Below, in pieces: positions 12,932 through 43,338 of a DNA stretch of 43,988 nt. How positions within the stretch are numbered: the stretch's first letter is position 1; every line of letters starts with the position of its first letter. The notes below the pieces were generated by a model that did no database searches, had not been told where the DNA came from, and saw only the letters and a program-made list of their open reading frames with translations. The DNA comes from Haliea sp. (GTDB lineage Bacteria > Pseudomonadota > Gammaproteobacteria > Pseudomonadales > Halieaceae): positions 1-43,988 of the forward strand of contig JBFHFJ010000001.1 of the NCBI GenBank assembly GCA_041583655.1. Reading direction: 5' to 3'. A program made the translations under genes and the position numbers.

Positions 12932-12947
12932 TCAACATATGTGTTGA
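12932..12947. promoter_or_regulatory. Palindromic operator copy 1, upstream of tetR and overlapping TTGACA
   Basis: TCAACATATGTGTTGA followed by CA. Confidence 0.8.
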
Positions 12948-12990
12948 CATAATCAAGGCAGTGTGGTCAGCTGCCGATCAGTATTGAAAG

Positions 12991-13767
12991 GTGGGCGTGG
13001 CTCAGGTGCTAGACAAGACAGGAAGCAAAAATTCTGCCAGTGGTATAGGCAAGCGGCGCGCAGCGGCCAAAGTCGACCGCGCGCCCAACTACGAGAAGCG
13101 GCGCAAGGAGATTTCCGAGGCCGCCGCTCGCGTATTCAATCGGCGTGGCTTTCGCGGTACCACTATCAGCGCAGTGGCTGAAGAACTCAGCATTGACCGC
13201 GCATCTCTGTATTACTACATCTCGAGCAAGGAAGAATTGTTCGACGAACTGGTACGTGAGGTCTCCGAAGACAACGTTGCGATGGCGCGGAAGATCCAGT
13301 CCAGCCAGCAGTCGCCACCGGAGAAGCTGCGCGAACTCATTCTCGAGCTCATGCGCGCCTATGCCCGCAGCTATCCGCTCCTGTATATCTATATCCGCGA
13401 GAATCTCGGCGACGTGGCTGACCAGCGTTCAAACTGGGCCCGATACATGAAGCAGATCAACCGGGATTACGACAACGCGGTGATCTCCATCATTGAGGAG
13501 GGCTACCAGGATGGTTCTTTCCAGGATGTCGGTGATCCGAAAATTGTGGCCTATGGGATCATCGGGATGGTGGGCTGGACCAACCGCTGGTTCAAGCCCG
13601 ACCGTGGCAAGGCCGATGCCGATGAGGTCGCCCGTATCTACGCTGATATGGTAATCGGCGGAATGAGTTCGGCACCCGCGTCGATTAATGGTGGCCGAGC
13701 GCGGCCCCCCGTTGCGGTCGGCAAGCGCAAGAAAGCGCCCGCAAAAAATAGCGCACGCGGCAAGTAG
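12991..13767 (+). CDS. TetR/AcrR-family regulator (KstR2-like C-terminal domain); probable repressor of the island
   Basis: HTH region AAARVFNRRGFRGTTISAVAEELSIDRASLYYYISSKEELF; C-terminal GMVGWTNRWFKPD. GTG start, exact position uncertain. Confidence 0.92.
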   Translation: MGVAQVLDKTGSKNSASGIGKRRAAAKVDRAPNYEKRRKEISEAAARVFNRRGFRGTTISAVAEELSIDRASLYYYISSKEELFDELVREVSEDNVAMARKIQSSQQSPPEKLRELILELMRAYARSYPLLYIYIRENLGDVADQRSNWARYMKQINRDYDNAVISIIEEGYQDGSFQDVGDPKIVAYGIIGMVGWTNRWFKPDRGKADADEVARIYADMVIGGMSSAPASINGGRARPPVAVGKRKKAPAKNSARGK

Positions 13768-13794
13768 CCGCGGTCAAGCTGCTCCCGTCACCGC

Positions 13795-13834
13795 CAGCGG
13801 AGGTTTTTGACCTCCGCTGAACCCTTTCTTTTTT
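13795..13834 (+). terminator. Intrinsic terminator after tetR
   Basis: CAGCGGAGGT-ttttg-ACCTCCGCTG stem followed shortly by TTTCTTTTTT. Confidence 0.7.
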
Positions 13835-13885
13835 CGTATGTATGACGCTTGTGGTGCCGTCCCTGGTTTCCGCTTGCTCGCTCAG

Positions 13886-13901
13886 TCAACAAAAGCGTTG
13901 A
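13886..13901. promoter_or_regulatory. Palindromic operator copy 2, upstream of the BVMO-ECH-HADH operon
   Basis: TCAACAAAAGCGTTGA followed by CA (TTGACA). Confidence 0.75.
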
Positions 13902-13984: not shown

Positions 13985-16000
13985 ATGAATGACATAACAA
14001 ACCCGGCGCCTGAGCGCTGGCTCCAGGACGCCATTGCGAGAGCCAACATTCCGACCCTGGCCTGTCTGCTGGTGCAAATAACCGGCGAGCGCCGCTGGAT
14101 CGAGGGCAGGTTTGTTCCCTCCAGGCCCCGTGGATTGGATGACAATGACTCCGGCGGGCTTGCACCCGAGGTTCAGGCTGAGATTCGGCAAGCTGCGCTG
14201 GAAGGCATAACTAGACTGCTGGCCGGCGAACCGCTGGCCCTGCCGGAACCCGCCGATGACTTGCTGGTGGAAATGATGAGCGTCTCGCTCGGCGAGCGCA
14301 TTCCGGCTGAATACGCGCCGATGATTCGCCACGAGCTCAACCCCACGGGTTCAGCCGCACCAGCATCGACACCGGACGAGAGTGCAGCGGTACAAGCCTT
14401 TCCCCGGTTCGAGGGTATGAATCCCCCGGAGGGGTTTCGGGCACTGATTATTGGCGCCGGAATATCCGGTCTCTGCGCCGCGGTAAACCTGGCGGCCGCG
14501 GGTATCCCGTATACGATCATAGAGCGCAACTCGCGCCTCGGTGGCGTCTGGCATGAAAACAACTACCCCGGCGCCGCCTGCGACGTGCCCAGCCACCTGT
14601 ACTCTTTTTCTTTTGCGCCCTTCGACTGGTCGCGTTACTTCGCCGCCAGCGAGGAAATCCAGCGGTACCTGGAAGAGGTTGCCGATCTTTTCGATGTGCG
14701 CCGCCACATCCGCTTTAACACCGAAGTTATGGCCGCGAACTATGACGATGGCGATGCTGAGTGGGAGGCGGTGCTGCGCACGGCAGATGGCTCAGAGGAG
14801 ACCGCGCGCGCAGATATGGTGATCAGTGCGGTGGGCGCCTTCAACAAGCCCCGCTTTCCTGATGTGCCCGGCATCGACAGTTTCGCCGGCCCCAGCGTGC
14901 ACACCGCGCGCTGGCCGAGGGAGGGCGTGGAACTTGCGGGGCGCCGGGTCCTGGTGGTTGGCAATGGCGCAAGCGCCATGCAGGTTGTACCGGCCATCGC
15001 CGGCCAGGCCGCGTCTGTCACGGTGATCCAGCGTTCGACTCAATGGGCCGCTCCTTTTCCCAAATTCCAGGTGGAGGTGCCTGCTAGTCTGCAGCGCCTG
15101 ATGCGCGAGGTGCCGCTCTACCGCCTGTGGTATCGCCTGCGCCTGAGCTGGGCCTTTAATGACAAGCAGTATGCCGCGCTGCAGAAAGACCCCGAGTGGG
15201 ATAATGGCGGACTCTCCATCAATGCCCTCAACGATGTGCATCGCCGCGGGCTTACCGAATACATCAAGTCGGAACTGGGGGACGCCCAGGAATTGCTACC
15301 GCAGGTGTTGCCTGATTATCCGCCCTTCGGCAAGCGGATGCTGATGGACAATGGCTGGTTCCGCACGCTGGCCCGCGATGATGTTCATCTGGTCACGGGG
15401 GCGGTAACGGAGGTCTTGCCGGACCGGGTGCGGGTGAGCGATGGGTCCGAGCACGTAGCTGACGTGATTATCTGGGCGACAGGATTCGACGTTGTGAATT
15501 TCCTCGCGCCGATGGAGCTGCACGGAGTAGGTGGGCGCAGCCTGCACGATGACTGGGACGGCGATGACGCCCGCGCCTACCTTGGCACAGTGGTGCCGGG
15601 ATTCCCGAATTTTTTCTGCCTGTATGGTCCCAATACCCAGTTCGGTCACGGGGGCAGCCTGATCAGCATCGTGGAAAGGCAGATGCATTACGTCATGTCC
15701 CTGCTTGAGGCGATGTTTGCGCGCGGCCTGCATACCGTGGATGTGCGCCCCGAGGTGTACGAAAACTACGCCCGGGAAATCGACCGGCGCCACGAAAAAA
15801 TGATCTGGACGCATCAGGGGATGAGTACCTATTACCGCAATTCCAAGGGCCGGGTGGTGGTCTGCAACCCGTTCAGGATCGTCGAGTTCTGGGGTCTGAC
15901 GGACGAAGCCAATCTTGAGGATTACCGGGGCTGGACGGCGCCACACGAGGAGGTGGCCACCACTTCCGCAGGCCACCGGGTCGGGAGTGCGGGCCAATGA
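13985..16000 (+). CDS. Type I Baeyer-Villiger monooxygenase, 4-hydroxyacetophenone monooxygenase (HAPMO)-like, with long N-terminal extension
   Basis: GAGISG, GGVWHENNYPGAACDVP, fingerprint FAGPSVHTARWP, GNGASA, PPFGKRML.DNGW and WATGF; ATG 13985 follows GGAGG. Confidence 0.9.
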   Translation: MNDITNPAPERWLQDAIARANIPTLACLLVQITGERRWIEGRFVPSRPRGLDDNDSGGLAPEVQAEIRQAALEGITRLLAGEPLALPEPADDLLVEMMSVSLGERIPAEYAPMIRHELNPTGSAAPASTPDESAAVQAFPRFEGMNPPEGFRALIIGAGISGLCAAVNLAAAGIPYTIIERNSRLGGVWHENNYPGAACDVPSHLYSFSFAPFDWSRYFAASEEIQRYLEEVADLFDVRRHIRFNTEVMAANYDDGDAEWEAVLRTADGSEETARADMVISAVGAFNKPRFPDVPGIDSFAGPSVHTARWPREGVELAGRRVLVVGNGASAMQVVPAIAGQAASVTVIQRSTQWAAPFPKFQVEVPASLQRLMREVPLYRLWYRLRLSWAFNDKQYAALQKDPEWDNGGLSINALNDVHRRGLTEYIKSELGDAQELLPQVLPDYPPFGKRMLMDNGWFRTLARDDVHLVTGAVTEVLPDRVRVSDGSEHVADVIIWATGFDVVNFLAPMELHGVGGRSLHDDWDGDDARAYLGTVVPGFPNFFCLYGPNTQFGHGGSLISIVERQMHYVMSLLEAMFARGLHTVDVRPEVYENYAREIDRRHEKMIWTHQGMSTYYRNSKGRVVVCNPFRIVEFWGLTDEANLEDYRGWTAPHEEVATTSAGHRVGSAGQ

Positions 16001-17670: not shown

Positions 17671-17686
17671 TCAACACAAGTGTTGA
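17671..17686. promoter_or_regulatory. Palindromic operator copy 3, upstream of the acyl-CoA dehydrogenase operon
   Basis: TCAACACAAGTGTTGA. Confidence 0.8.
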
Positions 17687-17750: not shown

Positions 17751-18932
17751 ATGATGAGCGCTGACAACATATTCTTTTCTCCGCTGGTGGATACGTCTGA
17801 TCACCACGCGGCTCTCCGTGAAAGCGTAGGCAAGCTCGTGGGCGGTTTTGGCCGCCGTTACTATCAAGAGGTGGTGGCCGCGGGTACTCCACCGACCGAG
17901 CTGTGGAGCGCTTTGGCAGAGGCGGGCTTTCTCGGCGCGCACATTTCCGATACCTACGGCGGCAGCGGTGGCGGCCTGGCGGACCTCAACGTGATCATCG
18001 AGGAAACGGCAGCCCAGGGGTGCCCGTTGCTGTTCCTGGTGATCCAGTCCATCTGTGCGCCGATACTGGAGCGCTACGCGTCCCAGGAAATCAAGGACAA
18101 GTGGCTTCCGGCGCTGGCCTCTGGGACTAAAAAAATGGCGTTCGCCATTACCGAACCCAACGCCGGCTCCAATACCCACAAGGTGACTACCACAGCCCGG
18201 TCGACCGCCAGCGGCTTTACGCTTTCCGGCACCAAGTACTGGACATCCGGTGTCGACGAAGCCGAGGCCATGCTGGTGGTTGCCCGCAACGGTGACGCCG
18301 TGCAGTCGGAGCGCTCCTCGCTGTCCCTGTTCATCGTTCCGACCGATGCGCCCGGCATTACGTTGAACAAGATACCGGCGGCGCTGATGACGCCGGAAAA
18401 CCAGTTCATGGTGTTCTTTGACGACGTGCAGTTGCCGCGGGAAGCCCTGGTGGGCGAACCGGGGGCGGGTCTCAAGCAGGTATTCGTGGGCCTCAATCCC
18501 GAGCGTGTATCGGCGGCGGCGATCAACAACGGCATCGCTCGCTACGCGCTGAGCAAGGGCTCCCAGTACGCGAGAGAGCGCTCGGTGTGGAAGACGACCA
18601 TAGGCGCTCACCAGGGGGTCTCACACCCGCTGGCTGAATCCTACATTAACGTCCAGGCGGCACGCTTGCTGACCGCGCGAGCGGCACAGCTGTTCGACGC
18701 CGGTGAAGATGCCGCCGAGGCAGCCAACATGGCCAAGTTCTGCGCTGCCGAGGCTTCGCTCAAGGCGCTGGACCAGGCCATGCAGGTCCATGGGGGCAAT
18801 GGGCTATCCTATGAATACGGCCTTGCCGACCTGTGGTTTATCGCACGCCTGCACAAGACCGCGCCGGTCAGCCGGGAAATGATCCTGAACTATGTCGCCC
18901 AGCACAGTCTCGGTCTGGAAAAAAGCTACTGA
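17751..18932 (+). CDS. Acyl-CoA dehydrogenase
   Basis: FAITEPNAGSN, GTKYWTS, GLNPER, IGAHQGVSHPLA, AMQVHGGNG. Confidence 0.93.
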   Translation: MMSADNIFFSPLVDTSDHHAALRESVGKLVGGFGRRYYQEVVAAGTPPTELWSALAEAGFLGAHISDTYGGSGGGLADLNVIIEETAAQGCPLLFLVIQSICAPILERYASQEIKDKWLPALASGTKKMAFAITEPNAGSNTHKVTTTARSTASGFTLSGTKYWTSGVDEAEAMLVVARNGDAVQSERSSLSLFIVPTDAPGITLNKIPAALMTPENQFMVFFDDVQLPREALVGEPGAGLKQVFVGLNPERVSAAAINNGIARYALSKGSQYARERSVWKTTIGAHQGVSHPLAESYINVQAARLLTARAAQLFDAGEDAAEAANMAKFCAAEASLKALDQAMQVHGGNGLSYEYGLADLWFIARLHKTAPVSREMILNYVAQHSLGLEKSY

Positions 18933-18962
18933 TTGCAGGGCATCGCGGAGTACGAGGATGTC

Positions 18963-20483
18963 ATGAACGTGAATTTCGCCGACATACTGCGCGACCACGC
19001 CCGGCAGCGCGCAGGCGCGCCGTGTCTCAGTTTTGCCGATGACACCCTGAACTATGGACAGTTGCACCAGCGCAGCAGCCAGCTGGCCAACGCGTTGTTG
19101 CAGCGCGGACTGGTAGCCGGGGACAGGGTCGCAGTCATCGCGCGCAATGCGCCGGTGTTCTACGAACTCGCCTTTGCCTGCGCCAAAGCCGGCATGATCA
19201 TGCTGCCGGTAAACTGGCGCCTGTCTGCGCGGGAACTGGGCGAAATCCTTGAAGATGCTTCCCCCGGCCTGGTGCTTGCGGACGAGGAGTTCGCCGGCAA
19301 TCTGCCCAATACCGCCCCGGTGACCATACTGGACAAGCACTTCGGTGACTGGCTCACCCGGGCCTCGGACACCGATCCCGGCGCGCCCATTGAGGGCGAT
19401 GAACCGATGCTGTTGCTGTATACCTCTGGCACGACGGGTCGTGCAAAAGGCGTCATGATCTCGCACCGGAACATGAGCTTCACCAGCCGCATGGCGCGGG
19501 AGGTCTGGCGCTTCCGGCCTGCCAGCGTCAACCTTGTTGCCGGGCCCCTGTTTCACATAGGCGGCATTGGCTACGGCATGATGTCGCTAACCCAGGGCGG
19601 ACACACGGTGCTGCTGCAGCAGCCCGCCCCTAATCCGGTGCTGCATGCGATTGTCCGGTATGGCGTCACGCACGCCTTTTTTGTACCCGCGGTTATCCAG
19701 AGTCTGGTTGAGGCCGAGGGCGTAGACGAAATGGATCTTTCCACGCTGGAGCTCATCGCCTACGGCGCTTCCCCGATCAGCGAAACGCTGCTGCTGCGTG
19801 CAATGACTGTGTTCGGGTGCGGATTCAGCCATGCCTACGGTCTGACCGAAACCTCTGGCACGGTGATAAGCCTGCCTCCGGAGGCGCATGACCCTGGCGG
19901 CGTACATGCGGAGCGATTGCGTTCCTGTGGGCTCCCCGTGCCCTGGGCGGAGGTTGACCTTTTTGACCCGCAGACGGATCTGCCAGTGGGCGAGGGCGAG
20001 GTAGGAGAGATACGCGTCCGCTCCGGAATGAACATGGTTGGTTACTGGAACAAGCCGCAGGAGACACGCGCTACCTTCGCCGAAGGCGGCTGGCTGCGAA
20101 CGGGAGATGCGGCGTGGCGGGACGCCGATGGATACTTTTACATCCACGACCGTTTCAAGGACATGATCGTCTCCGGTGGTGAAAATATTTACCCGACCGA
20201 AGTGGAGAATGTGCTCTACCAGCATCCGGATGTCGCGGAGGCTGCGGTCATCGGGGTTCCCCACGAGCGCTGGGGAGAGACCCCGAAAGCGATCGTGGTG
20301 CTGCGTACCGGCAGTCTGGTGGTGGAGCAGGACCTGATTGGCTTCCTGCGCCAGCGACTGGCGCACTACAAGTGTCCCACATCGGTAGAGTTTGTACAGT
20401 CGATGCCGCGCAGTGCCTCCGGCAAGATACTGAAGCGGGAACTGCGCCTGATGGCCTGGCCCGAGAAGAGGAGGGCTCAATGA
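18963..20483 (+). CDS. Acyl-CoA synthetase (long-chain fatty acid-CoA ligase family)
   Basis: YTSGTTGRAKG, YGLTE, GWLRTGD, DRFKDMIVSGGENIYP, SGKILK. Confidence 0.93.
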   Translation: MNVNFADILRDHARQRAGAPCLSFADDTLNYGQLHQRSSQLANALLQRGLVAGDRVAVIARNAPVFYELAFACAKAGMIMLPVNWRLSARELGEILEDASPGLVLADEEFAGNLPNTAPVTILDKHFGDWLTRASDTDPGAPIEGDEPMLLLYTSGTTGRAKGVMISHRNMSFTSRMAREVWRFRPASVNLVAGPLFHIGGIGYGMMSLTQGGHTVLLQQPAPNPVLHAIVRYGVTHAFFVPAVIQSLVEAEGVDEMDLSTLELIAYGASPISETLLLRAMTVFGCGFSHAYGLTETSGTVISLPPEAHDPGGVHAERLRSCGLPVPWAEVDLFDPQTDLPVGEGEVGEIRVRSGMNMVGYWNKPQETRATFAEGGWLRTGDAAWRDADGYFYIHDRFKDMIVSGGENIYPTEVENVLYQHPDVAEAAVIGVPHERWGETPKAIVVLRTGSLVVEQDLIGFLRQRLAHYKCPTSVEFVQSMPRSASGKILKRELRLMAWPEKRRAQ

Positions 20484-21325
20484 TGACCTCGCCGGACAAA
20501 AAGGCAGATAGCCTGCCGGAAATCCATCCTCTGGCCGCTCTGCTGCGTGGCTTTGCCGTGGACTTCATCACCGGGCATGACATAAGCGTGGCGGAGCGGA
20601 TCATGGCGCCCGGCTATTGCCTGAGTATTGGTGGTCATCTCCTGAACGGTCGTGACGCAGAATACCTGCCCCCGACTGCGGCCCAGATTCACCAGTTTCC
20701 GGGACTTTGTGTGACGGTGCACGATGTCATCTACGGCGACAATGCGCTGGCCATGAAGTTTACCGAGCACGGCGCATCCTCCAGGGACGGTGGGCGCGCT
20801 GCCACCTGGCGCGGAATTACGCTGTTTCGCACCGACGGTAAACAACTGCGGCAGGGCTGGGCCGAGGAAGACTATTTCGCGCGCAAGCGCCAGTTGTCGT
20901 CCGGTAGCTGTGATGCGGTGGATCCGCCCCATCCGGCTCCGTGGGATGTGCTGCACGCCCCATCGAACCCGGAAACCGAATCGGTTGCGCGACGCTGGTT
21001 GTCGTCCGTGGGGGCAGTAACGCAGCCCGCGGGTACGGACTGGTTGTCGCAAGTAGACGATTCAGACCCCCAGCCTGCGGCGCTGTTTGACATCCACGCC
21101 ACGACCATAGATGAACTGTTTTCAGCCGGTGATCGGGCGGCCTTCCACCTGCAGCATGAGGCTGTCTACAAGGGTGGCTTTCCCGACCTGGATCCGGGCC
21201 TTGCCGGCAAGCCGGTTATTGTCCGCGCTGCCGGCATGCTGACCGTCCGGTCTGGCGTGGTGGTGGACGCCAGCGTTACCACGGATAGGCTCGGTCTGTA
21301 TCGAGCACTCAGGTTTGGCCAGTGA
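20480..21325 (+). CDS. Tandem SnoaL/NTF2-like (ester cyclase-like) domain protein
   Basis: FPGLCVTVHDVIYGDNALAMKFTEHG...WRGITLFR and a second IDELFSAGDRAAFH...VRAAGML repeat; ATGA overlap with the ligase stop. Confidence 0.72.
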   Translation: MMTSPDKKADSLPEIHPLAALLRGFAVDFITGHDISVAERIMAPGYCLSIGGHLLNGRDAEYLPPTAAQIHQFPGLCVTVHDVIYGDNALAMKFTEHGASSRDGGRAATWRGITLFRTDGKQLRQGWAEEDYFARKRQLSSGSCDAVDPPHPAPWDVLHAPSNPETESVARRWLSSVGAVTQPAGTDWLSQVDDSDPQPAALFDIHATTIDELFSAGDRAAFHLQHEAVYKGGFPDLDPGLAGKPVIVRAAGMLTVRSGVVVDASVTTDRLGLYRALRFGQ

Positions 21326-21377
21326 ATGCTGGGTAATTCCAGCCTCTTAGAACGTACGCTTGCTCAGGTAAACGGCG

Positions 21378-22652
21378 ATGAAAATAAACGATAAAGCAAG
21401 TCCGCGCATTTTTTATGGCTGGTGGCTGATGCTGGTCTGCCTGCTGATCCAGGCCGTGGGCTTCGGAACCTCTTTGTACCTCTACAGCGTGATGATTGGC
21501 GCGATCGGAGCCGAGTTCGAGGGCAGCCGGTTTGTGATGATGATGGGCGTGTCCGGCATGCTGCTCCTGGTTGGCCTCATGTCTCCCAAGATCGGTTCAC
21601 TGCTTGACCGCTATCCGGTCAAGCGGGTTTTGATCTCCGGCGGAATCGTGATGGGCTCCGGATTCATACTGATGTCTTTCTCGGGCAATATCTACCACGT
21701 GGTGTTCTACTATGCCCTGTTTATCGCGCTGGGCATGACCATTCTCAGCCCCTTGTCCTGCTCACTGTTGCTGACGCGCTGGTTTGTGCGTCACCGCGGA
21801 CTGGCACTGGGAATCTCTGCATTGGGCACCCAGTTTGGAGGCCTGGTCTTTCCACCTGTGATTGCGGCGATTGCTGCCGCCCATGACTGGCGGGTGGCGG
21901 CTACCTGCCTGGGCCTGTTCATTATCGCTTTCGTGCCCGCGCTGGCCTGGTTCTTCGTTCACGATCATCCGCGGGACAAGGGCCTGTATCCTGACGGTGC
22001 GGAGAGTGACGCTAATGCGTCCACGACAAATTCCGAACCCGCCGTCACGCCCAATTTTTCCATGCGGGCGATCTATACCAGCCCCAATTTCATCATTGTG
22101 GTGGCCATCGTTACATTTATGTCGATGATCTATTCGGGCTTGCTGTCGAACATTTCGCTGATCGCGGTCGACAAGGGTGAAACCCTGCAGCGAGGCGCAT
22201 TCCTGGTATCCCTGATGTCGCTGGTCGGGATGATATCCAGTCCCCTGCTGGGAAGGCTCAGCGACATACTCAGCGTACGCAAGACGCTTGTGGTGATGAG
22301 CGCGAGTGCGCTGCTCGCGCTGGTGCTTTTCCACCAGGCACAGGGTTACGCTGTGCTGGTCGCGGCGGTGGTTTGTTTCGGCTTCTTCGGTGGCGCGGTA
22401 GTGCCGGTGTGGTCGGCAGCCCTTAGTCGCCTTTACGACAGTCGAATTTACGGTCGCGTCTTGGGTGCATCCAGCGCCGTGGTTTACTCGCTTGCTGCCC
22501 TGTCTGCACCCACCATTGGCTTGCTGTATGACCTCACCCAGAGTTATCAGATTACTTTTGTCATCCTCGCCAGTGTTGCGGTTCTGCTGATGTTCGCCAT
22601 TGCAAAAATCACGCCCCAGCAGCATCTGATGGCTGAAGAGACCAGGAACTGA
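21378..22652 (+). CDS. MFS transporter (OFA/MCT-like)
   Basis: FYGW start, GSLLDRYPVK and GRLSD motif A copies, RWFVRHRGLALGI, about 12 TM. Confidence 0.9.
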   Translation: MKINDKASPRIFYGWWLMLVCLLIQAVGFGTSLYLYSVMIGAIGAEFEGSRFVMMMGVSGMLLLVGLMSPKIGSLLDRYPVKRVLISGGIVMGSGFILMSFSGNIYHVVFYYALFIALGMTILSPLSCSLLLTRWFVRHRGLALGISALGTQFGGLVFPPVIAAIAAAHDWRVAATCLGLFIIAFVPALAWFFVHDHPRDKGLYPDGAESDANASTTNSEPAVTPNFSMRAIYTSPNFIIVVAIVTFMSMIYSGLLSNISLIAVDKGETLQRGAFLVSLMSLVGMISSPLLGRLSDILSVRKTLVVMSASALLALVLFHQAQGYAVLVAAVVCFGFFGGAVVPVWSAALSRLYDSRIYGRVLGASSAVVYSLAALSAPTIGLLYDLTQSYQITFVILASVAVLLMFAIAKITPQQHLMAEETRN

Positions 22653-22714: not shown

Positions 22715-22769
22715 TCAATACATGTGTTGACAAAATAGAATGGCGGCGTAATATCAACTGTAGTGTTGA
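22715..22769 (+). promoter_or_regulatory. Sigma70-type promoter with tandem operators (copies 4 and 5) upstream of TonB receptor 1
   Basis: TCAATACATGTGTTGA (22715-22730) overlaps TTGACA; 16-bp spacer; TAATAT; then TCAACTGTAGTGTTGA (22754-22769). Confidence 0.8.
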
Positions 22770-28596: not shown

Positions 28597-28602
28597 GTAG
28601 AG

Positions 28603-35464: not shown

Positions 35465-37087
35465 TCAGTTCGAACCTCCCACCTTTTGCATGTTGAAGCC
35501 TTCCCACTGATTCGCCATTACCTGGTGCAGGATGCGGCGATAGCCGCGTACACCGCCAGAGTAGGGCATGAACACGTGCGGTTTGCCGGGCACTTCGTCA
35601 CCCATGTAGTAGGAGCGAGCCTTGGGGTAGAGCGTCTCCTGTGAGCGCTCATTCACGTGCTGAACCCACTCCTGCTCCGCGTCGCGCCGCGCCTCGACCT
35701 CGTTGAGATCGCGGGCATTCATATCCGCAATCAGGTCGCGAATGAAGTCCGCGTGCTCCTCGGTGGAGACCAGCACGTTGCTGAGCAGGGATGGGCTACC
35801 GGGTCCCACCATGATAAAGAGGTTGGGGAAACCCGCGGTGCTGAGGCCCAGATAGTTGGCCGGACCATCGCCCCACTTCTGTTTCAATGTGACGCCGCCG
35901 CGACCGACAATTGTCGGTGCCAGAATGGAGCCGGTAAAGACGTCGAAACCGGTGGCGAAGATGATCATGTCCAGAGGGTATTCGCCGGCTTCGGTGCGGA
36001 TGCCGCTGGCGGTGAACTCGAGGATGGGGTGCTCCCTGATATCAACCAGTTCAACATTGTCGCGGTTGAACGCTTCGTAGAACTGGTGATCCACCGATGG
36101 CCGCATGGTGCCAAAGGGAAACCCGCGCGGGGTGAGTTTTTCGCGCACCGCCGGGTCATGAACTTTCTCGGCGATCTTGCGGTGTACAAACTCCACCACC
36201 CTGTCGTTGGCTTCCTCATTCAGCAGGATGTCGTGATAGGCGAGGGCAAAGCCGAAACCCAGGCGGTTCCAGGCTTTCTCCAGCACCTGTTCACGAACCT
36301 CGGGGGGGTCTTCCAGCAGCGACTTCTTGTTGGGGATGAAGCCCAGGCCGCTGGGAGAGTTGCGGGCCTGTTCTCGTCGAGCCTGGTAGCCCGCTTTTAT
36401 GGTCGCGTCTTCCTCGTCGCTGATATGCGCGTGACAGGCGGGGATGCTGTAGTTTGCTGTACGTTGGAATACGCAGAGGTGGGCGGCCTGCTCGGCAATG
36501 ACGGGTGTCATCTGTACTCCGGAGGAGCCGGTGCCGATAATGCCGACACGCTTGCCGGTAAAGTCCACCGGATGACGAGGCCACAGTGCGCTGTGGTAAA
36601 CCTCGCCCTGAAAGCTGGCCTCACCGGGGAATTCGGGTTTCTTCGGTTTTGACAGCTGTCCCACAGCCATCACCACAAATCGTGCCGTAATGGTCTTGCT
36701 ATTGCTGGTGGCTACTGTCCAGTTCGCGGCAGACTCGTTGTAGGTGGCGGATTCCATCCGTGTGCTGAACAGGATGTCCTTGCGCAGCTCAAACTTGTCC
36801 GCCACGTAGCGAATATAGTCGAGAATTTCGCCCTGCTGCGCATAGCGCTCGGTCCAGCGCCACTCCTGCTCGAGTTCCTCGGAAAACCCGTAGGAGTAAT
36901 CATAACTTTCTACATCACAACGCGCGCCCGGATAGCGATTGTAGTTCCAGACACCGCCGACTTCATCCGATGCCTCGATTACCAGGCACTGCAGTCCCTG
37001 CCTGCGCAGGGTGTACAGGGCGCGCAAGCCCGCAAAGCCAGCACCGACAATCAGCACGTCGATCATGTTCCCGGGTTTCGTAGCCAT
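35465..37087 (-). CDS. Type I Baeyer-Villiger monooxygenase (cyclohexanone/phenylacetone/steroid monooxygenase-like)
   Basis: GAGFAG, GGVWNYNRYPGARCDVES, FQGEVYHSALWP, GTGSSG, FATGFD. Confidence 0.93.
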   Translation of the reverse strand: MATKPGNMIDVLIVGAGFAGLRALYTLRRQGLQCLVIEASDEVGGVWNYNRYPGARCDVESYDYSYGFSEELEQEWRWTERYAQQGEILDYIRYVADKFELRKDILFSTRMESATYNESAANWTVATSNSKTITARFVVMAVGQLSKPKKPEFPGEASFQGEVYHSALWPRHPVDFTGKRVGIIGTGSSGVQMTPVIAEQAAHLCVFQRTANYSIPACHAHISDEEDATIKAGYQARREQARNSPSGLGFIPNKKSLLEDPPEVREQVLEKAWNRLGFGFALAYHDILLNEEANDRVVEFVHRKIAEKVHDPAVREKLTPRGFPFGTMRPSVDHQFYEAFNRDNVELVDIREHPILEFTASGIRTEAGEYPLDMIIFATGFDVFTGSILAPTIVGRGGVTLKQKWGDGPANYLGLSTAGFPNLFIMVGPGSPSLLSNVLVSTEEHADFIRDLIADMNARDLNEVEARRDAEQEWVQHVNERSQETLYPKARSYYMGDEVPGKPHVFMPYSGGVRGYRRILHQVMANQWEGFNMQKVGGSN

Positions 37088-37166: not shown

Positions 37167-37204
37167 TCAACAACAACGTTGCATCAAGTCAACATATGTG
37201 TTGA
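37167..37204. promoter_or_regulatory. Operator copy 8 plus a degenerate copy in the divergent BVMO/MaoC promoter
   Basis: TCAACATATGTGTTGA (37189-37204, identical to copy 1) and TCAACAACAACGTTGC (37167-37182). Confidence 0.78.
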
Positions 37205-37291: not shown

Positions 37292-37735
37292 ATGAACGAA
37301 CGCAGCAGCGATTTCCCTTCCATGCGGATAACCGCAGACACGCCAATTGGCTATGAACTACAGCCGGTAAAAAAGCGGGCCGTGATCCAGTTGATGGGCT
37401 CCCGGCTCTGGGGCCGATTCAATCCCAACCACTGGGACCCCGATTACGCCTCCTCGACCGGTCTCGATGCCCCGATCCAGACCGGCGAGATGTCCTCGGC
37501 CTACATCGCCGAGATGTGCGTCAATCACTTCGGCGCCGACCTGTTTCGCAATGCGCGTGTGGTCTGCAAATACGTCGCCTCGACGCTGGCCAATGAAGTC
37601 ATTACCACCCACGGCGTGGTCAGGGAGAAGACGGCGGAGGGCGATGGTTTTCGTTTCAGGGTAGAGGTCTGGTGTGACAACGAGGCAGGCGAGAAAAAGA
37701 CCGTGGGCTGGGTCGAAGCCAGCGTCGGCGCCTGA
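37292..37735 (+). CDS. MaoC-like hot-dog fold (R-specific hydratase-like) protein
   Basis: FNPNHWDPDYA...GLDAPIQTG variant of the D.NP.H.D hydratase motif; ATG 37292 follows GGAGG. Confidence 0.75.
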   Translation: MNERSSDFPSMRITADTPIGYELQPVKKRAVIQLMGSRLWGRFNPNHWDPDYASSTGLDAPIQTGEMSSAYIAEMCVNHFGADLFRNARVVCKYVASTLANEVITTHGVVREKTAEGDGFRFRVEVWCDNEAGEKKTVGWVEASVGA

Positions 37736-37789
37736 CAGCGTGGAAAGGCGACCGCAGGGTGAAACGCCGCGACAGGAAGGAGCAGGGCA

Positions 37790-38326
37790 GTGAAAGAATC
37801 GAAGGCAATATTAGACAGCTTGCGTCCCCAGAGTGACGTCCAGGTTCAGCAGACGAAGGCATTTATCAAGGAACTTGAGCAGAAGTGCCAGACCTACTGG
37901 GATATGGTAGAGGTCGGTGATGAGCTGTCACGGGAGCTCTATATCACGCCGGAGCTGGTCATCCTCTATGCCGACGGTGTTGAGGATTTCAATCCCTGGT
38001 ACGAGGCGTGGCGAATGAATTCCTGGCGCATTCCTGGCGATTCGCCGTTTGGCGGCGCAATCGTGCCGCCCCTGCTGGTGTCCCATTTTGTTCTCTCGGT
38101 TCAGTTCGATCACACCCGACCCTTCGCGATTGGCTCGATTCACACCTATCACGACTCGGAAATTCTGGCGCCTATTCCGGTGGGGGCGACGGTTCGCATT
38201 ACGACGCGTGCCGTGGACAAATATGAAAAGCGCGGCCGTCGTTATGTGCGTCACGATGCCGAGGTGGTAGACACGGAGGACGGCACGGTCTACTTCCGCG
38301 AAACCCGCGACATCCTGTCCCTGTAG
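37790..38326 (+). CDS. MaoC-like hot-dog fold protein (partner subunit)
   Basis: YADGVEDFNPWY, SPFGGAIVPP, PIPVGATV...DKYEKRGRRYV. Confidence 0.72.
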   Translation: MKESKAILDSLRPQSDVQVQQTKAFIKELEQKCQTYWDMVEVGDELSRELYITPELVILYADGVEDFNPWYEAWRMNSWRIPGDSPFGGAIVPPLLVSHFVLSVQFDHTRPFAIGSIHTYHDSEILAPIPVGATVRITTRAVDKYEKRGRRYVRHDAEVVDTEDGTVYFRETRDILSL

Positions 38327-38338
38327 GAGCCAGCCAAG

Positions 38339-38779
38339 ATGCTTGATCAAACCAGCTTTGTTGTCGACGGCTTGATGGTAGAAGGTCCCGACGGGACCCG
38401 TTTGTGCGCTTCTTTCTGTGACGGCTGCGGCACGGTGTATTTCCCTCGACCAGTCAGTTGTCGCAACCCCGAATGCTCCTCAAAGGCGCTTCAGGACAGG
38501 CTGCTGGAGGGCCGGGGGACGCTGTACAGCTTTACGATCCAGCGCTACCAGCCGCCTGCATTGTTCCGGATCGACAACTGGGAGCCCTATGCGCTGGGCC
38601 TGGTGGAGCTGCCAGAGGGGCTTCAGGTGATGGGGATGTTGTCCGGGTTTGACCTCGACAACATCCGCATTGGCGAGCCGGTCAAGCTGGTATCCGAATG
38701 CCTGTTCACGGATCCGGAGCGAGGCCGGGTGATGACCTACAAGTTTGCTCCGGAAATGTCGGGGGGGAGCCCACAGTGA
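38339..38779 (+). CDS. DUF35 (zinc ribbon + OB-fold) protein, BbsA/ChsH2 C-terminal-like
   Basis: CDGCG..YFP...CRNPEC, GRGTLYSFT, PYALGLVELPEG, IGEPV. Confidence 0.88.
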   Translation: MLDQTSFVVDGLMVEGPDGTRLCASFCDGCGTVYFPRPVSCRNPECSSKALQDRLLEGRGTLYSFTIQRYQPPALFRIDNWEPYALGLVELPEGLQVMGMLSGFDLDNIRIGEPVKLVSECLFTDPERGRVMTYKFAPEMSGGSPQ

Positions 38780-39966
38780 GACCAGTATATGTCCTTGGTG
38801 CCGGCGCCCACCCGTGGGGTAAATGGCCAAACAAGCCGCAGGTTGCCATGGCCGTGGAGGCCCTGCAGGCCGCGTTCGCGGATGCCGGCCTGGGGTGGCA
38901 GCACATTGAAGGCCTGGTGGCCGCCAGCTCCCGCTTTGAGGGTGGCATGGGCTGGGGGCTGCATGCCAATGAAATTGTGCAGACGGTCTCGGAGCAGGGA
39001 ATTCCCTGCATTAACGTGGGCGGCGCCTGTGCCGCGGGTGTCATCGCCTTCCAGACGGCCTGGGCGATGATCGCCAGTGGCCAGCACGAAGCGGTCGCGG
39101 TAGTGGGTGCCGAGCGAATGCCCAAAGGGTTTATTCCGCGCCCGCCCGGTAGCCAGGATGATATCAGCGACTCCGACTACCTGCGCTGGGTCACCATGGG
39201 TGCTACCAATCCGGCCTATTGGGCGCTGGAGGCGCACCGCCGTTTTCATGACTTTGGCACCACGCATGAGACGCTGGCACTGGCTTCAGTCCTGATGCGC
39301 AACAATGCATCGGGCAATCCCTATGCCCGCTACCGTGAGGCGTTGACGGTGGCCGAAGTACTGGCATCGCCCATGGTGTCGGATCCGCTGCACCTGCTGC
39401 AGATCTGCCCGGTAAGCGATGGCGCTGCAGCCCTGGTGCTGGGCAGTGAGCGATTTCTTCAGCGCGTCGCCAGGGATCCTGTGCAGGTTGCAGGCTGCGC
39501 CGTTGGTTCGGGCCAGTTTGGCGACCCGGCCCGGCGTATTCCCACCATCGCCAACAACCTGCTGCCGGGTGTGGCGCATACCAGCGAAGTGGTCGGTGCG
39601 GTCGGTCGTGCGCTGGAGATGGCGGGAATGGGCCCGAAGGATGTCGATATTCTGGAGATGGCCGACAATTCGGTCTGGCATCTGCTGGCGTGGCCTGAGT
39701 TGTTCGGATTTGTCGAGCCGGGCCAGAGCGACTGGATGCTGGAGAATGGCCGCTATGCCCGGGATGGAGACCTGGCGCTCAATCCCGGAGGCGGCTTCCT
39801 GTCCTTTGGTGAAGCGACCACGGCGCAGGCGGTGCTGCAGGTCTGTGAACTGACCTGGCAACTGCGCGGGGAGGCCGAGGGGCGGCAGGTACCGGGGGCG
39901 AAGGTGGGCATGTCTGCAGTCCTGGGGCTGGGTGCCAACGGTGGTTCGGTCATACTCAAACGCTAG
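38776..39966 (+). CDS. SCP2/Ltp-type thiolase-superfamily protein with atypical catalytic motifs
   Basis: GTG 38776 overlaps the DUF35 stop; GAGAHPWGK, NVGGACAAG, CPVSDGAAA, NPGGGFLSFGEA, QLRGEAEGRQVPGA. Confidence 0.87.
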   Translation: MRPVYVLGAGAHPWGKWPNKPQVAMAVEALQAAFADAGLGWQHIEGLVAASSRFEGGMGWGLHANEIVQTVSEQGIPCINVGGACAAGVIAFQTAWAMIASGQHEAVAVVGAERMPKGFIPRPPGSQDDISDSDYLRWVTMGATNPAYWALEAHRRFHDFGTTHETLALASVLMRNNASGNPYARYREALTVAEVLASPMVSDPLHLLQICPVSDGAAALVLGSERFLQRVARDPVQVAGCAVGSGQFGDPARRIPTIANNLLPGVAHTSEVVGAVGRALEMAGMGPKDVDILEMADNSVWHLLAWPELFGFVEPGQSDWMLENGRYARDGDLALNPGGGFLSFGEATTAQAVLQVCELTWQLRGEAEGRQVPGAKVGMSAVLGLGANGGSVILKR

Positions 39967-39998
39967 CGGGCCGCTGACAGTTTTGGCAGGAGAGGCTG

Positions 39999-41726
39999 AT
40001 GATGAGCAAGCAGGAATCCGTCGGGCAGCGCCAGCAGGCACTGGAGAGCCGCCATCCGGTGTGGCGGCCCCGTACCCTGGACCAGCTGCTGGCTGATGTC
40101 GCCCGGGAGTGGCCCGAGCGCGACCTCGTAATCACTGACGCCAGAACCTACAGTTACCGCGACATGGATGAGTGGGCTACGCGCCTGGCTCACGGCCTGC
40201 GCCAGGCGGGTGTTCGCCGCGGTGACCATGTCGCCCTGGTGATGGCCAACTATCCCGAGTTTGTTGCCCTCAAGTTTGCCATCTCCCGAGCCGGGGCCAC
40301 CGCTGTCCCCATCAATTTTCTCAACCGTCGCGACGAGCTGGCCTATGTGCTTGAGCAATCGGATGCCCGTTGCCTGGTGACCATGGACAGCTTCCGCAAC
40401 CTGGACTACCTCGACATGCTTGATCAGCTGGCGCCGGGCTGGGAGCGTGCGGGAGGCGGGGCCCGGTTTCCCGAACTTGAGCGGGTGTTTGTTTTTCCCT
40501 GTTCCGGCGAACCACTGCGCCCGGGCGCAAGGCCGCTAACCGAGCTCGATAGTGGCAGCGCGGCACCGGCGTCGGGTGCGCGGGGGGACTCGCAGGGCGT
40601 TGCCGATCTTATCTATACCTCGGGCACGACCGGCGGCCCCAAGGGCGTCATGTTGAGCCACGACATGTTGCTGCGCACGGCCTACGGCAGCGCCTACGGC
40701 AGGGCCTTCCAGGGCGGTCGGCGGATTCTGTTCGCGATGCCGATGTACCATGTCTATGGTTATGTCGAGGGTCTGCTGGCCGCACTGATGGTGGGCGGAG
40801 CGATCATTCCCCAGCTGCAGTTTGATCCCGCCGAGACTTTGCGCGCGGTTGCCGAGCACCAGGCCAACGATATTCTCCTGATCCCGACCATGACCCTGGC
40901 TCTGCTGGAACAACTGGAAAAGCAGCCCCGCGCCCTGGCGTCGCTCACCGCCATGCTGTCTTCGGGCGGGAAATCGCCCCCGGGTATCTGGGGTCGAATC
41001 GCTGCCGCTTTTGGCCCGCTTGAAGTGACCACCGGCTACGGCATGACCGAGGCCACAGCATCCTCTACCGTCACCCGCCCCGACGATCCCCCCGAGCGGT
41101 TGTACACAAGCAACGGTCGTCTGCGGGATGTCGGTGCGGCAGGGGGTCCGGATAACGGCGGCAGGCTGGTTGTCTACCGGGTCGTGGACTCCGCCTCCGG
41201 TGCTGAATTACCCCGCGGTTCCCTGGGGGAATTGCGCATGAAAGGTATCGGGGTTACCCGGGGCTATTACAACAAGCCCGCCGAGACTGCCGCGGCCTTC
41301 GACGAGGAGGGCTGGTTTCGTACCGGAGACCTCGGCATCCTGGACGGGGAAGACTACATCACGCTCATGGGGCGCACCAAGGAGAGCTACCGCTGTGGCG
41401 GCGAACTGGTGTTGCCGCTGGAGGTAGAACAGGTCCTCGCGATGCACCCCGCGGTCGGCGAGGTGCATGTGGTGGCCGTGCCGGATACGAAAATGGGGGA
41501 GGTGGGCGTTGCCTGTGTGGTGGCGCCCCAGCAGCCGGCGACGACGGCGGATGAGCTGATTGCGTACTGCATGCCCCGGCTGGCCCGCTTCAAGGTGCCG
41601 AAACACGTCATATTCATCCGCCCGGAGCAGGTGCCGGTCACCGCCACCGGGCGCCCCCGCAAGTTCCTCTTGGCGGAGCTCGCACAGGAGTTGTTGGCGG
41701 AACAATGTGCGAGGAATCGACGATGA
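39999..41726 (+). CDS. Acyl-CoA synthetase / AMP-binding enzyme
   Basis: YTSGTTGGPKG, GYGMTE, GWFRTGDLG, GRTKESYRCGGE, RFKVPK. Confidence 0.92.
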   Translation: MMSKQESVGQRQQALESRHPVWRPRTLDQLLADVAREWPERDLVITDARTYSYRDMDEWATRLAHGLRQAGVRRGDHVALVMANYPEFVALKFAISRAGATAVPINFLNRRDELAYVLEQSDARCLVTMDSFRNLDYLDMLDQLAPGWERAGGGARFPELERVFVFPCSGEPLRPGARPLTELDSGSAAPASGARGDSQGVADLIYTSGTTGGPKGVMLSHDMLLRTAYGSAYGRAFQGGRRILFAMPMYHVYGYVEGLLAALMVGGAIIPQLQFDPAETLRAVAEHQANDILLIPTMTLALLEQLEKQPRALASLTAMLSSGGKSPPGIWGRIAAAFGPLEVTTGYGMTEATASSTVTRPDDPPERLYTSNGRLRDVGAAGGPDNGGRLVVYRVVDSASGAELPRGSLGELRMKGIGVTRGYYNKPAETAAAFDEEGWFRTGDLGILDGEDYITLMGRTKESYRCGGELVLPLEVEQVLAMHPAVGEVHVVAVPDTKMGEVGVACVVAPQQPATTADELIAYCMPRLARFKVPKHVIFIRPEQVPVTATGRPRKFLLAELAQELLAEQCARNRR

Positions 41727-42472
41727 GCAAGGTGGCAGTGGTAACGGGCAGTGCCCGCGGTATCGGCGCGGCTATCGCGCTGCGTTTGGCCCGCGACGGC
41801 CTTGATGTGGCGATCCTGGACCTGGACGCCACCCGCTGCGCGGACACCGTGGCAGCGGTCCAGGCGCTAGGTCGCCGGGCAATGGCGGTGACCGTGGACG
41901 TGACCGACGAGGCTTCCGTGGCAGCGGCCGCCGCTCGCGTCGCGGAAGAACTGGGGCCACCTCTGGTGCTGGTGAACAATGCCGGCATCATGAGCTCGCG
42001 CATGGCTCATCGCATGAGTCTGGGCGAGTGGGAGCTGGTGCTGGATGTGAACCTGCGCGGCGCCTTCCTGATGAGCCGGGAACTGCTGCCGTTTATGCGC
42101 GAAGCGAAATGGGGCCGGATCATCAATCTTTCCAGTACAGGCGCCCTGGGCCTGGTTGGCGGTGCCAACTACGCTGCGGCCAAGGCGGGTGTACAGGGCC
42201 TGACCAAGACCCTGGCCCTGGAGCTGGGGCCGTTCAACGTCACTGCCAATGCGATTGCACCGGGCTTTGTGGTCACCGATATGACACGCAGTATGGCGCG
42301 GGAGGTCGGCGTCACAGTCGAGGAGATGGAGGCGGACATGGTGAAGGACATCGCCGTTGGTCGTGCCGGCACCCCTGACGATATTGCCCATGCGGTGGCG
42401 TTCTTTGCCGACGAGCGCTCTTCCTTTGTCTCCGGCCAGGTGCTCTACGTGGCGGGCGGCCCGAAGACCTGA
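41723..42472 (+). CDS. FabG-like SDR (3-oxoacyl reductase family)
   Basis: TGSARGIG, NNAG, NYAAAK, NAIAPG; ATG 41723 overlaps the ligase stop. Confidence 0.92.
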   Translation: MSKVAVVTGSARGIGAAIALRLARDGLDVAILDLDATRCADTVAAVQALGRRAMAVTVDVTDEASVAAAAARVAEELGPPLVLVNNAGIMSSRMAHRMSLGEWELVLDVNLRGAFLMSRELLPFMREAKWGRIINLSSTGALGLVGGANYAAAKAGVQGLTKTLALELGPFNVTANAIAPGFVVTDMTRSMAREVGVTVEEMEADMVKDIAVGRAGTPDDIAHAVAFFADERSSFVSGQVLYVAGGPKT

Positions 42473-42489
42473 CCCGCCCCGGTCTTCCC

Positions 42490-43263
42490 TTACTGGATGA
42501 TCGCTACCGCGCGCGTCCAGCCCGCAGAGGCTCCACGAATCTTGCAGGGGAAACAGGAGACCTCGAAGCCGGACGGCGGCAGGGCTTCCAGGTTGTGCAG
42601 CTTTTCCAGGTGGCAGTAGCCGATGTCGCGTCCGGCCTTGTGGCCCTCCCAGATCAGGCCCGCATCTCCGGTTGCCTCGTAACGTTGCCCGGTGTGGACG
42701 AAGGGCGCATCCCAGCTCCAGCCGTCGGTGCCGGTCACCCGTACACCGCGCTCCAGCAAATACATGGTGGCCTCGTAGCCTATGCCGCAACCGGCTGACA
42801 CGTAATCGTCACTGCCGTAGCGGGCCCCGGCGGCCGTGTTGACGAGGACAATCTCCAGCGGTTTCAGGGTGTGGCCAATCCGCGCCAGCTCCTTCTCAAC
42901 GTCCGCAGCGGTCACCACGTAGCCGTCCTCGAAATGGCGAAAGTCCAGCTTGACCCCGGGCTGGAAGCACCAGTCCAGCGGCACCTCGTCGATGGTAATG
43001 GCGCGTTCGCCGCCATTCATGGTGGAGGCGAAGTGCCAGGGTGCGTCGAGGTGCGTGCCGTTGTGGGTAATCAGCTCGACCTTCTCGATGGCCCAGCCCT
43101 CGGCGTCAGGCAGGTCTTTAGCCTGCAGGCCGGGGAAAAAACCGAGGATGTCCGGAAGGGATGCCTGGTGGTCTATATAGTGGATTTTTGGCTGGTAACC
43201 GGGCGGGTCCGAGATGACATCGTTTTCAAAGTAGATGGAAAGATCGATTATCTGCCTGCTCAT
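42490..43263 (-). CDS. Cyclase-family metallohydrolase (kynurenine formamidase/isatin hydrolase-like)
   Basis: HNGTHLDAPWHF metal motif, GTDGWSWD, HLEKL, RAVA; ATG 43263 follows GAGGA. Confidence 0.9.
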   Translation of the reverse strand: MSRQIIDLSIYFENDVISDPPGYQPKIHYIDHQASLPDILGFFPGLQAKDLPDAEGWAIEKVELITHNGTHLDAPWHFASTMNGGERAITIDEVPLDWCFQPGVKLDFRHFEDGYVVTAADVEKELARIGHTLKPLEIVLVNTAAGARYGSDDYVSAGCGIGYEATMYLLERGVRVTGTDGWSWDAPFVHTGQRYEATGDAGLIWEGHKAGRDIGYCHLEKLHNLEALPPSGFEVSCFPCKIRGASAGWTRAVAIIQ

Positions 43264-43322
43264 GGGAGGTTCCTCGCTGTAGAGCGCGGTGGAATGGCGG
43301 CTCTGCAGCGTATGGTAGCAAT

Positions 43323-43338
43323 TCAACAGATATGTTGA
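43323..43338. promoter_or_regulatory. Palindromic operator copy 9, upstream of the cyclase-family gene
   Basis: TCAACAGATATGTTGA. Confidence 0.78.

Follow-up and report, generated by a model that had tools for sequence, protein, structure and literature searches.

We report a candidate regulator–operator pair in a 43,988-nucleotide stretch of DNA from Haliea sp. (assembly GCA_041583655.1, contig JBFHFJ010000001.1, positions 1 to 43,988; hereafter, the window). Specifically, a 16-letter palindrome with the consensus (G)TCAACR-N4-YGTTGA(C) recurs across a block of genes between 12.9 and 43.3 kb, here called the island. Judged from sequence comparison, the palindrome is likely the operator of TetR1, a TetR-family protein encoded at the left end of the island. 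TetR1 very probably binds the palindrome, and there is strong reason to regard it as a repressor rather than as an activator. The full picture, in which TetR1, its operator, and its regulon form parts of an inserted catabolic cassette, appears likely to us. The sites and the two TetR genes that border them are as follows.

12932..12947: predicted operator upstream of tetR1, at the left insertion end; perfect match with the top matrix score in the genome; same place in the related genomes G012 and G001
12997..13767, plus strand: TetR1, predicted cognate repressor, with TetR_N and TetR_C_24 domains; first in-frame GTG at 12991
13886..13901: predicted operator in the predicted promoter of the Baeyer-Villiger monooxygenase (BVMO) gene BVMO1; right arm is the TTGACA −35 box, 18 nt to TG-c-GATGCT
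17671..17686: predicted operator over the −35 box of the acyl-coenzyme A (CoA) dehydrogenase operon (TTGAAT-N17-TATATT); also in genome G005
22715..22769: predicted operator pair, 39 bp apart, with 22715 on the −35 box (TTGACA) and 22754 on the −10 end (TAATAT) and expected start of the TonB receptor 1 promoter
31702..31756: predicted operator pair, 39 bp apart, over the −35 (TTGACA) and −10 (TATTAT) boxes of the TonB receptor 2 promoter
37167..37204: predicted divergent operators between BVMO2 and MaoC1, weak 37167 and perfect 37189, 22 bp apart
43323..43338: predicted operator in the spacer of the predicted cyclase promoter (minus strand, TTGTCA-N18-TG-c-TACCAT), at the right insertion end
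43355..43972, minus strand: TetR2, core gene beside the insertion, outside the regulon

An earlier note on this DNA had listed ten copies of the palindrome, and all ten are present letter for letter where it placed them. Scanning the window with at most two mismatches returns 12 matches compared to 0.81 expected, a count reached by none of 100 shuffles. The two additional matches, each with two mismatches, lie within hemN (9271) and within the second TonB receptor gene (32790). The note's remark that the first 12.9 kb holds no copy is borne out at one mismatch or fewer, and its description of every copy as intergenic stands once 13886 is counted as upstream of the Shine-Dalgarno-supported start at 13985. 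Five copies do run into TTGACA as claimed (12932, 13886, 22715, 31702, and 43323), but the one at 43323 provides no −35 box. That copy faces the 3' end of TetR2, and the cyclase promoter lies on the opposite strand, so there TTGACA is an extension of the palindrome.

In the draft genome (3.27 Mb, 82% complete), the motif is not widespread: the stretch from 12.9 to 43.3 kb holds all four perfect matches and 9 of the 14 matches with at most one mismatch. Long open frames contain the remaining five, which were rejected as regulon members outside the island. A weight matrix built from 153 sites at 79 loci in other genomes places nine island sites at ranks 1 to 9 genome-wide and site 37167 at rank 12. 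Because the pattern itself served as the seed for this matrix, the independent test is the unseeded search described below.

The island is an insertion. Five relatives of the same genus lack the island, and in them an S8 peptidase gene comes directly after the 3' end of TetR2, showing that approximately 30.4 kb has been inserted here, from just downstream of the TetR2 stop codon (43355) to 12.8–12.9 kb. GC content is 60.8% in the island versus 64.5% to its left. In genome G001, of the same genus, this cassette recurs with its gene order and both end sites intact at a different chromosomal place, flanked by other genes. Carriage is patchy (3 of 41, 14 of 151, and 7 of 401 genomes). No recombinase or transposase is present among the island genes, and the junctions show no target duplication. 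Compared with their G012 counterparts, window proteins are 95–99% identical in the central part and 81–92% identical at the ends, which suggests that the middle of the cassette was exchanged recently. The S8 peptidase gene, a core gene with a conserved TATAAT approximately 50 bp from site 12932, is an unlikely target of that site.

Several comparative tests support the earlier note's proposal that TetR1 is the cognate repressor of the palindrome. Among 41 relatives, clusters of perfect sites occur only in G000, G001, and G012, exactly the three genomes that possess TetR1. All ten sites are retained in both G012 and G001, and their arms (118/120 and 114/120 positions identical to the window, respectively) are far better kept than their 12-bp flanks (180/240 and 146/240) or spacers (27/40 and 22/40). 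The spacing of 22715 and 22754 is likewise preserved in both.

The association extends beyond the genus. We collected the best 80 of 458 TetR1 homologues in a species-genome collection (39–88% identity), and their loci, from Gammaproteobacteria, Alphaproteobacteria, and Actinomycetota, contain 158 sites with at most one mismatch, distributed over 63 loci; the reversed-pattern control yields none. When spaced palindromes upstream of orthologous genes were counted without seeding, TCAAC-N6-GTTGA ranked first (47 of 76 loci; the best shuffled word reached 7), and it ranked first upstream of TetR alone as well (22 of 76 loci). One locus, L022 (labelled Haliea sp., with a TetR 93% identical over 201 residues), was left out of both the matrix and the unseeded search. 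Two other loci, L024 and L099, are labelled Cryomorphaceae and Flavobacteriaceae, yet they are of proteobacterial type with 55% and 63% GC, and they are probably mis-binned contigs.

Whole genomes give a similar picture. In Sphingomonas humi, Brevundimonas staleyi, and Klenkia brasiliensis, all perfect sites (3, 2, and 3) lie at the TetR locus. Among 151 Sphingomonadaceae genomes, the 14 carriers of the TetR1 subfamily average 4.07 perfect sites compared to 0.64 in the 137 non-carriers, and at least three perfect sites occur in 11 of 14 carriers versus 9 of 137 non-carriers; in these comparisons, at most 19 candidates were scored per genome, and kin are not independent. Five TetR-negative sphingomonads with 3–4 matches were rechecked: no subfamily match was found, and the matches are mostly scattered, with two pairs 0.9 and 8.8 kb apart. 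On plasmid pSFD01 of Sphingopyxis sp. FD7, 13 of 14 sites lie at three scattered pathway blocks. This plasmid (L102, L104, and L105) holds the pathway in two partly duplicated copies broken by insertion sequences, with three intact subfamily TetRs and one broken one, and one of its BVMO1 genes is annotated as two pieces. A luciferase-like monooxygenase of strain FD7 was considered as a diketocamphane monooxygenase (DKCMO) and rejected because the match is weak (E 4e-14).

TetR1 scores above the cut-off for PF00440 and PF17932, and a structure model and Foldseek agree on a KstR2/PfmR-like fold, with the N-terminal helix-turn-helix and the all-helical ligand domain of the TetR family. Its recognition helix reads IDRASLYYY, and its N-terminal arm reads SGIGKRR. 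All aligned site-bearing TetRs possess a helix 3 of the form DR[AS][ST][LIV]YYY together with a basic N-terminal arm. Among aligned TetRs lacking sites, the helix region of L092 is damaged and two others are intact. Outgroup TetRs with similar acyl-CoA neighbourhoods have other helices in six of six cases, and no sites.

Paralogues at 30–44% identity retain the same site beside other catabolic gene sets. In Rhodococcus, these are AtuA-containing and acetoacetate-ligase clusters with seven sites each. A sister clade accompanies clusters with the gene content of the camphor (CAM) pathway: a CYP101D-type P450, a zinc alcohol dehydrogenase, a CoA ligase, and a 2,5-DKCMO homologue. All eight sister-clade loci contain sites, 3–7 each. 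The second luciferase-like monooxygenase of these clusters has no PDB match at 1e-15. P0336, a Pseudomonas protein 66% identical to the 2,5-DKCMO homologue, is UniProt M5AWY0 (25DK2_PSEPU; P. putida CamE25-2). With this protein alone as the query, 14 metagenome loci were fetched (up to 94% identical to CamE25-2). They hold 39 sites in 11 of the 14, compared to one in the control. These sites overlie −35 boxes and directly precede genes for 2,5-DKCMO, a 3,6-DKCMO-like protein, and a 545-residue BVMO in the camG position. A subfamily TetR is present in 3 of the 14. In two Pseudomonas-type camphor loci (L132 and L136), site clusters stand ahead of a DUF1302-DUF1329-BNR-MMPL operon, which is likely an uptake system in place of TonB receptors. 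In another genome (L123–L124; G122:C3:652-690 kb), approximately 20 kb or less separates a camphor-type cluster from a TetR1-type module, each with its own subfamily TetR, an arrangement in which common operators would permit cross-talk.

A number of observations weigh against TetR1 as the protein that reads the palindrome. At one mismatch or fewer, 17 of the 80 homologue loci have no site. Genome G533 encodes a subfamily TetR with an intact helix (G533:C4:205265-205915) and has no site in the surrounding 60 kb and no perfect site in the genome. Conversely, G005, a 540-contig assembly, possesses island genes and a site, and TetR1 was not found there. The Sphingomonadaceae positives overlap the loci collected earlier and are related to one another. 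Finally, among seven Pseudomonas-type camphor loci (L131–L137), six contain sites and none has a subfamily TetR in the fetched DNA, and in three of them an unrelated TetR gene neighbours the 3,6-DKCMO-like gene.

The last of these observations, the G533 case, and the similarity of the PsrA site, also a 16-mer, could suggest that some other regulator, either a trans-acting or global one such as PsrA or the camE36-adjacent TetR, binds the palindrome and that TetR1 is only a target. We deem this improbable. The camE36-adjacent TetR has no homologue (E 1e-4) in the eight camphor loci that have both sites and a subfamily TetR, and none at 1e-5 in the Haliea genome. A match to a known global regulator was one of the refuting outcomes that the earlier note had flagged, and the PsrA core occurs once in the genome and never in the window. 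Moreover, the motif accompanies this TetR clade in several phyla and beside unrelated sets of genes. TetR2 is all but excluded as a candidate, even with a perfect site 17 bp from its stop codon. TetR2 matches occur in 15 relatives but not in G001 (99% complete), which retains all ten sites, that at 43323 included; TetR2 is present in five island-less Haliea, none of which has such a site; and its recognition helix differs (VARRTFYSYF). It is equally far-fetched that the palindromes are by-products of −35 boxes or recombination sites that delimit or move the island, as the frequent TTGACA right arm and the same-orientation sites at both insertion ends might hint, because both arms are conserved even where a site is no −35 box, spacers vary among sites, eight sites are internal, and the island has no recombinase gene.

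With TetR1 as the predicted reader of the palindrome, the architecture of the cassette can be laid out. The remaining genes are the following.

13985..16000, plus strand: BVMO1, type I Baeyer-Villiger monooxygenase with an N-terminal extension; PDB matches STMO and PAMO; ribosome-binding site present
15997-16761, plus: enoyl-CoA hydratase
16808-17650, plus: 3-hydroxyacyl-CoA dehydrogenase
operon 17751..22652, first gene, plus: acyl-CoA dehydrogenase
18933-20483, plus: CoA ligase FadD1
20480-21325, plus: double SnoaL protein
21378-22652, plus: major facilitator superfamily (MFS) transporter
block 22862..31558, first gene, plus: TonB-dependent receptor 1
25213-25905, plus: glutathione S-transferase (GST)
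26698-28596, plus: CxxCH/beta-propeller protein 1, preceded by short-chain dehydrogenase/reductase (SDR) 1
29318-31558 (open frame), plus: second CxxCH protein, preceded by SDR2
from 31889, plus: TonB-dependent receptor 2
34224-35408, plus: thiolase; presumed to be co-transcribed with TonB receptor 2
35465..37087, minus: BVMO2; nearest solved relative is phenylacetone monooxygenase
block 37292..42472, first gene, plus: MaoC-like 1
37790-38326, plus: "MaoC2", conserved partner, so labelled from its position
within 37292..42472, plus: DUF35/ChsH2-like protein, between MaoC2 and Ltp
38776-39966, plus: Ltp, non-canonical thiolase fold
last two genes of 37292..42472, plus: CoA ligase FadD2 and SDR3
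42490..43263, minus: cyclase-family metal hydrolase, final insertion gene

From the gene spacing, seven promoters are predicted (the divergent region and six others), and each has a site. The only gap of at least 90 bp in the island that lacks a site is the 94 bp upstream of the thiolase gene. By consensus match, which is the sole basis of the promoter assignments, the right arm forms the −35 box of the acyl-CoA dehydrogenase, TonB receptor 1, and TonB receptor 2 promoters, 16–17 nt ahead of TATATT, TAATAT, and TATTAT, respectively. Both TonB promoters have a second site 39 bp further on, over the −10 end and the expected start. Autoregulation of tetR1 through site 12932 is predicted. Short hairpins seen by eye at 34140-34175 (after TonB receptor 2) and 35415-35445 (between the convergent thiolase and BVMO2 genes) possibly stabilise RNA or terminate transcription.

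Both BVMOs contain the patterns FxGxxxHxxxW[PD] and [AG]GxWxxxx[FY]P[GM]xxxD, the two fingerprints of type I enzymes. MaoC2 has no Pfam, NCBIfam, or PDB match; it is 70–84% identical over Gamma- and Alphaproteobacteria and ranks among the best-conserved cassette genes. The two CxxCH proteins, which are predicted to be exported, belong to a large family with no known reaction; each combines a carboxypeptidase-regulatory-like domain with one CxxCH haem motif, and the first also has a Vgb-like beta-propeller. The CxxCH genes occupy the place of a pyrroloquinoline quinone (PQQ) alcohol dehydrogenase in other genomes, and thus, they may perform a first periplasmic step. The idea that the GST is a pinene-oxide-lyase-like enzyme was not confirmed and was dropped. 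Outside the island (2733-6098), genes for a cytochrome c, a MauG-like di-haem peroxidase, and a parallel beta-helix protein (TIGR03805) stand in a row that is kept in relatives.

How might the circuit operate? In our model, apo-TetR1 dimers on the sites would block sigma-70 polymerase at the −35/−10 boxes and thereby repress tetR1 and the six other predicted promoters of the cassette. Basal uptake and ligase activity would yield a CoA ester that releases TetR1. Release by a CoA thioester is plausible given the fold and a gene content that includes two CoA ligases, and the effector is likely an ester made by the cassette's own ligases. The nearest structures to the TetR1 model are 3dcf, KstR2, and PfmR. 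KstR2 responds to CoA esters. A CoA-ester response is also established for AibR (PMC5389471).

AibR raises another scenario, in which TetR1 binds DNA only when loaded with ligand, as a co-repressed regulator, or acts as an activator. AibR, which is among the structural neighbours of TetR1, binds DNA only with isovaleryl-CoA (PMC5389471), and isobutyryl-CoA co-represses OTEMO in P. putida (PMC6027186). We nonetheless judge this scenario improbable: the sites overlap −35/−10 boxes, which excludes simple activation, and the targets are catabolic genes, for which release by an intermediate is the rule, as with KstR2 (PMC3068626).

Released from TetR1, the cassette would import its substrate through the two TonB receptors and the MFS transporter. 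CoA activation, hydration, and carbon–carbon cleavage (the MaoC pair, DUF35 protein, and Ltp) would follow, with loss of a C2 unit at a branch point and a ketone as the product. A Baeyer-Villiger step would turn the ketone into an ester or lactone, to be hydrolysed (by the cyclase-family protein, or by an esterase in other genomes) and passed to beta-oxidation. Similar chemistry has been proposed for abscisic acid (ABA) from its metabolites, with a BVMO suggested and no genes named (PMC7996341, PMC9599779). Ltp retains the CxAG cysteine, aligned with that of BbsB and of SCP2 thiolase, and has GEA in place of the thiolase GHP. With the cysteine kept and the GHP histidine absent, both aldolase and thiolase activities are possible for Ltp.

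That all these operons serve one pathway, as the earlier note proposed, is only partly upheld: modules remain near the TetR gene, but two of them separate across genomes. Both MaoC2 and SnoaL are present in 7 of the 21 genomes that encode a close TetR1-type regulator; 4 have only MaoC2, 9 only SnoaL, and 1 neither, a split that may be inflated because several of the 21 are incomplete assemblies. The five island-less Haliea have neither gene. This pattern points to a single regulon made up of two or more separable branches, not to one fixed pathway. The modules recur in different arrangements from genome to genome, and elsewhere they are accompanied by an esterase, by a PQQ alcohol dehydrogenase plus an aldehyde dehydrogenase, by a beta-keto acid cleavage enzyme, or by a luciferase-like monooxygenase.

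What, then, does the cassette consume? By a modest tilt of the evidence, we favour the import and oxidation of a terpenoid-type compound that is cyclic or methyl-branched. The sister clade is associated with camphor-type clusters, and a further paralogue resides among AtuA genes. Against this assignment, the island has no P450 and no DKCMO, the 82%-complete draft genome yields no luciferase-like monooxygenase match and only 25–29% P450 matches, and BVMO1 and BVMO2 are only 31% and 38% identical to the enzyme in the OTEMO position. Consequently, the terpenoid assignment rests on the paralogues and on enzyme logic.

With regulator and operator unchanged, the substrate could instead be non-terpenoid: an alicyclic (naphthenic-type) acid, an aryl-alkyl ketone precursor, a polyketide lactone, or a steroid-type side chain. 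We consider this a substantial possibility, if somewhat short of an even chance. BVMO2 has its closest matches among phenylacetone and steroid monooxygenases. In 9 of 82 loci, a neighbouring protein exceeds the NCBIfam threshold for 3,5-dioxohexanoate:acetyl-CoA acetone transferase. Cyclohexylacetate is degraded by hydration followed by a retro-aldol step that leaves a ring ketone, and many carriers belong to taxa known as steroid degraders. However, alongside the paralogue associations, the steroid ring-C/D ligase FadD3 is located elsewhere, also in island-less Haliea, and the island has no ring-cleavage dioxygenase.

A more ambitious synthesis combines four propositions. First, TetR1 could belong to a TetR subfamily that spans phyla and follows a single fixed DNA code, in which a DR[AS][ST]xYYY helix and a basic arm read TCAACR-N4-YGTTGA. 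Second, the paralogues could sense CoA esters of ring-opened terpenoids. Third, one branch could be the missing regulator of camphor monooxygenase induction by the downstream product OTE. Fourth, the Haliea branch could control an undescribed, carboxylase-independent route by which marine, freshwater, and soil bacteria process algal apocarotenoids or phytol-derived acids through hydration, C2 removal, and Baeyer-Villiger oxidation. This route would be akin to the gene-less one from ABA via dehydrovomifoliol to rhodococcal acid. We offer the four jointly as speculation that is rather unlikely to hold in its entirety.

The third proposition bears on an existing puzzle. Induction of P450cam and the DKCMOs by OTE is described as occurring "from the bottom" (PMC6027186). 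The gene order of the camphor pathway is given in PMC8706424, and camS, camU, and camV are uncharacterised according to PMC6027186. A subfamily repressor released by OTE-CoA would explain such product induction, and the site before camphor monooxygenase genes makes it testable which regulator underlies DKCMO induction by OTE.

The observation is real and well supported, and the mechanism of the regulon is ordinary. What is new is the regulator–operator pair itself and the access it gives to an uncharacterised cassette and to the regulation of the camphor pathway. The comparative support for the pair is unusually strong, and the pair outlines a catabolic cassette of approximately 24 genes that recurs in Halieaceae, Porticoccaceae, Sphingomonadales, Caulobacteraceae, Steroidobacteraceae, and Geodermatophilaceae. 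Because cultured carriers exist (Sphingopyxis sp. FD7 with pSFD01, Sphingomonas humi, Brevundimonas staleyi, and Klenkia brasiliensis), the substrate could be identified with a reporter screen. CoA-ester biosensors with one common operator might also be drawn from the subfamily.

Searches of open-access text returned no description of this operator or cassette. Among the closest known systems is the KstR2 regulon of actinomycetes (Rv3557c; PMC3068626), which, like the one predicted for TetR1, is local, autoregulated, and composed of CoA-dependent catabolic operons. The two proteins share a TetR_C_24-type fold (TM ~0.75) and a W-x-x-R-W-[FY]-x-P segment, but they are only 29% identical (4w97/4w1u) and differ in the recognition helix. 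KstR2 orthologues are more than 50% identical to each other, and their 14-bp operator is AnCAAGnnCTTGnT (PMC3068626), a sequence with no match in this genome. FadD3 and HIP-catabolic genes are targets of the KstR2 regulon; the two island ligases score 321 and 306 bits versus a FadD3 cut-off of 657, and true FadD3 lies outside the cassette in four of four relatives, two of them island-less. On the grounds of operator, identity, and FadD3, membership in the KstR2 regulon is rejected.

PfmR of Thermus thermophilus (3vpr) and the Thermobifida protein 3dcf are the best PDB matches to TetR1 in sequence and fold, but identity is only ~26%. The PfmR/PaaR-type core is ACCGA-N4-TCGGT, and the PsrA core, CAAAC-N4-GTTTG, is spread over fad genes. 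The window contains none of the PfmR/PaaR, PsrA, and KstR cores, and with a single genome match for its core, PsrA does not claim the island for its global regulon. PsrA, FadP, and LiuQ (PMC5343134) match the predicted role of TetR1 as TetR repressors of CoA-dependent catabolic genes with palindromic sites, but theirs are multi-locus lineage regulons of fatty-acid or branched-amino-acid metabolism, whereas the island is a mobile cassette with a patchy distribution. None of the 33 proteobacterial regulons covered from PMC5343134 (Table 1) has a TetR of comparable scope.

The row of MaoC-like, DUF35, and thiolase-fold genes is shared with ChsH1/ChsH2/Ltp2 of steroid side-chain degradation and with BbsAB, the benzoylsuccinyl-CoA thiolase. 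Ltp is closer to BbsB (E 6e-41) than to Ltp2 (E 1e-23). Ltp2-type aldolases have lost the thiolase cysteine and use catalytic tyrosines; Ltp has kept the cysteine, and an Ltp2-type identity is rejected. Finally, compared with the CAM pathway of P. putida ATCC 17453, the island differs in having no P450cam, DKCMO, or OTEMO orthologue, but the two systems share the logic of Baeyer-Villiger oxidation combined with CoA activation, and the same palindrome precedes relatives of camE25, camE36, and camG.

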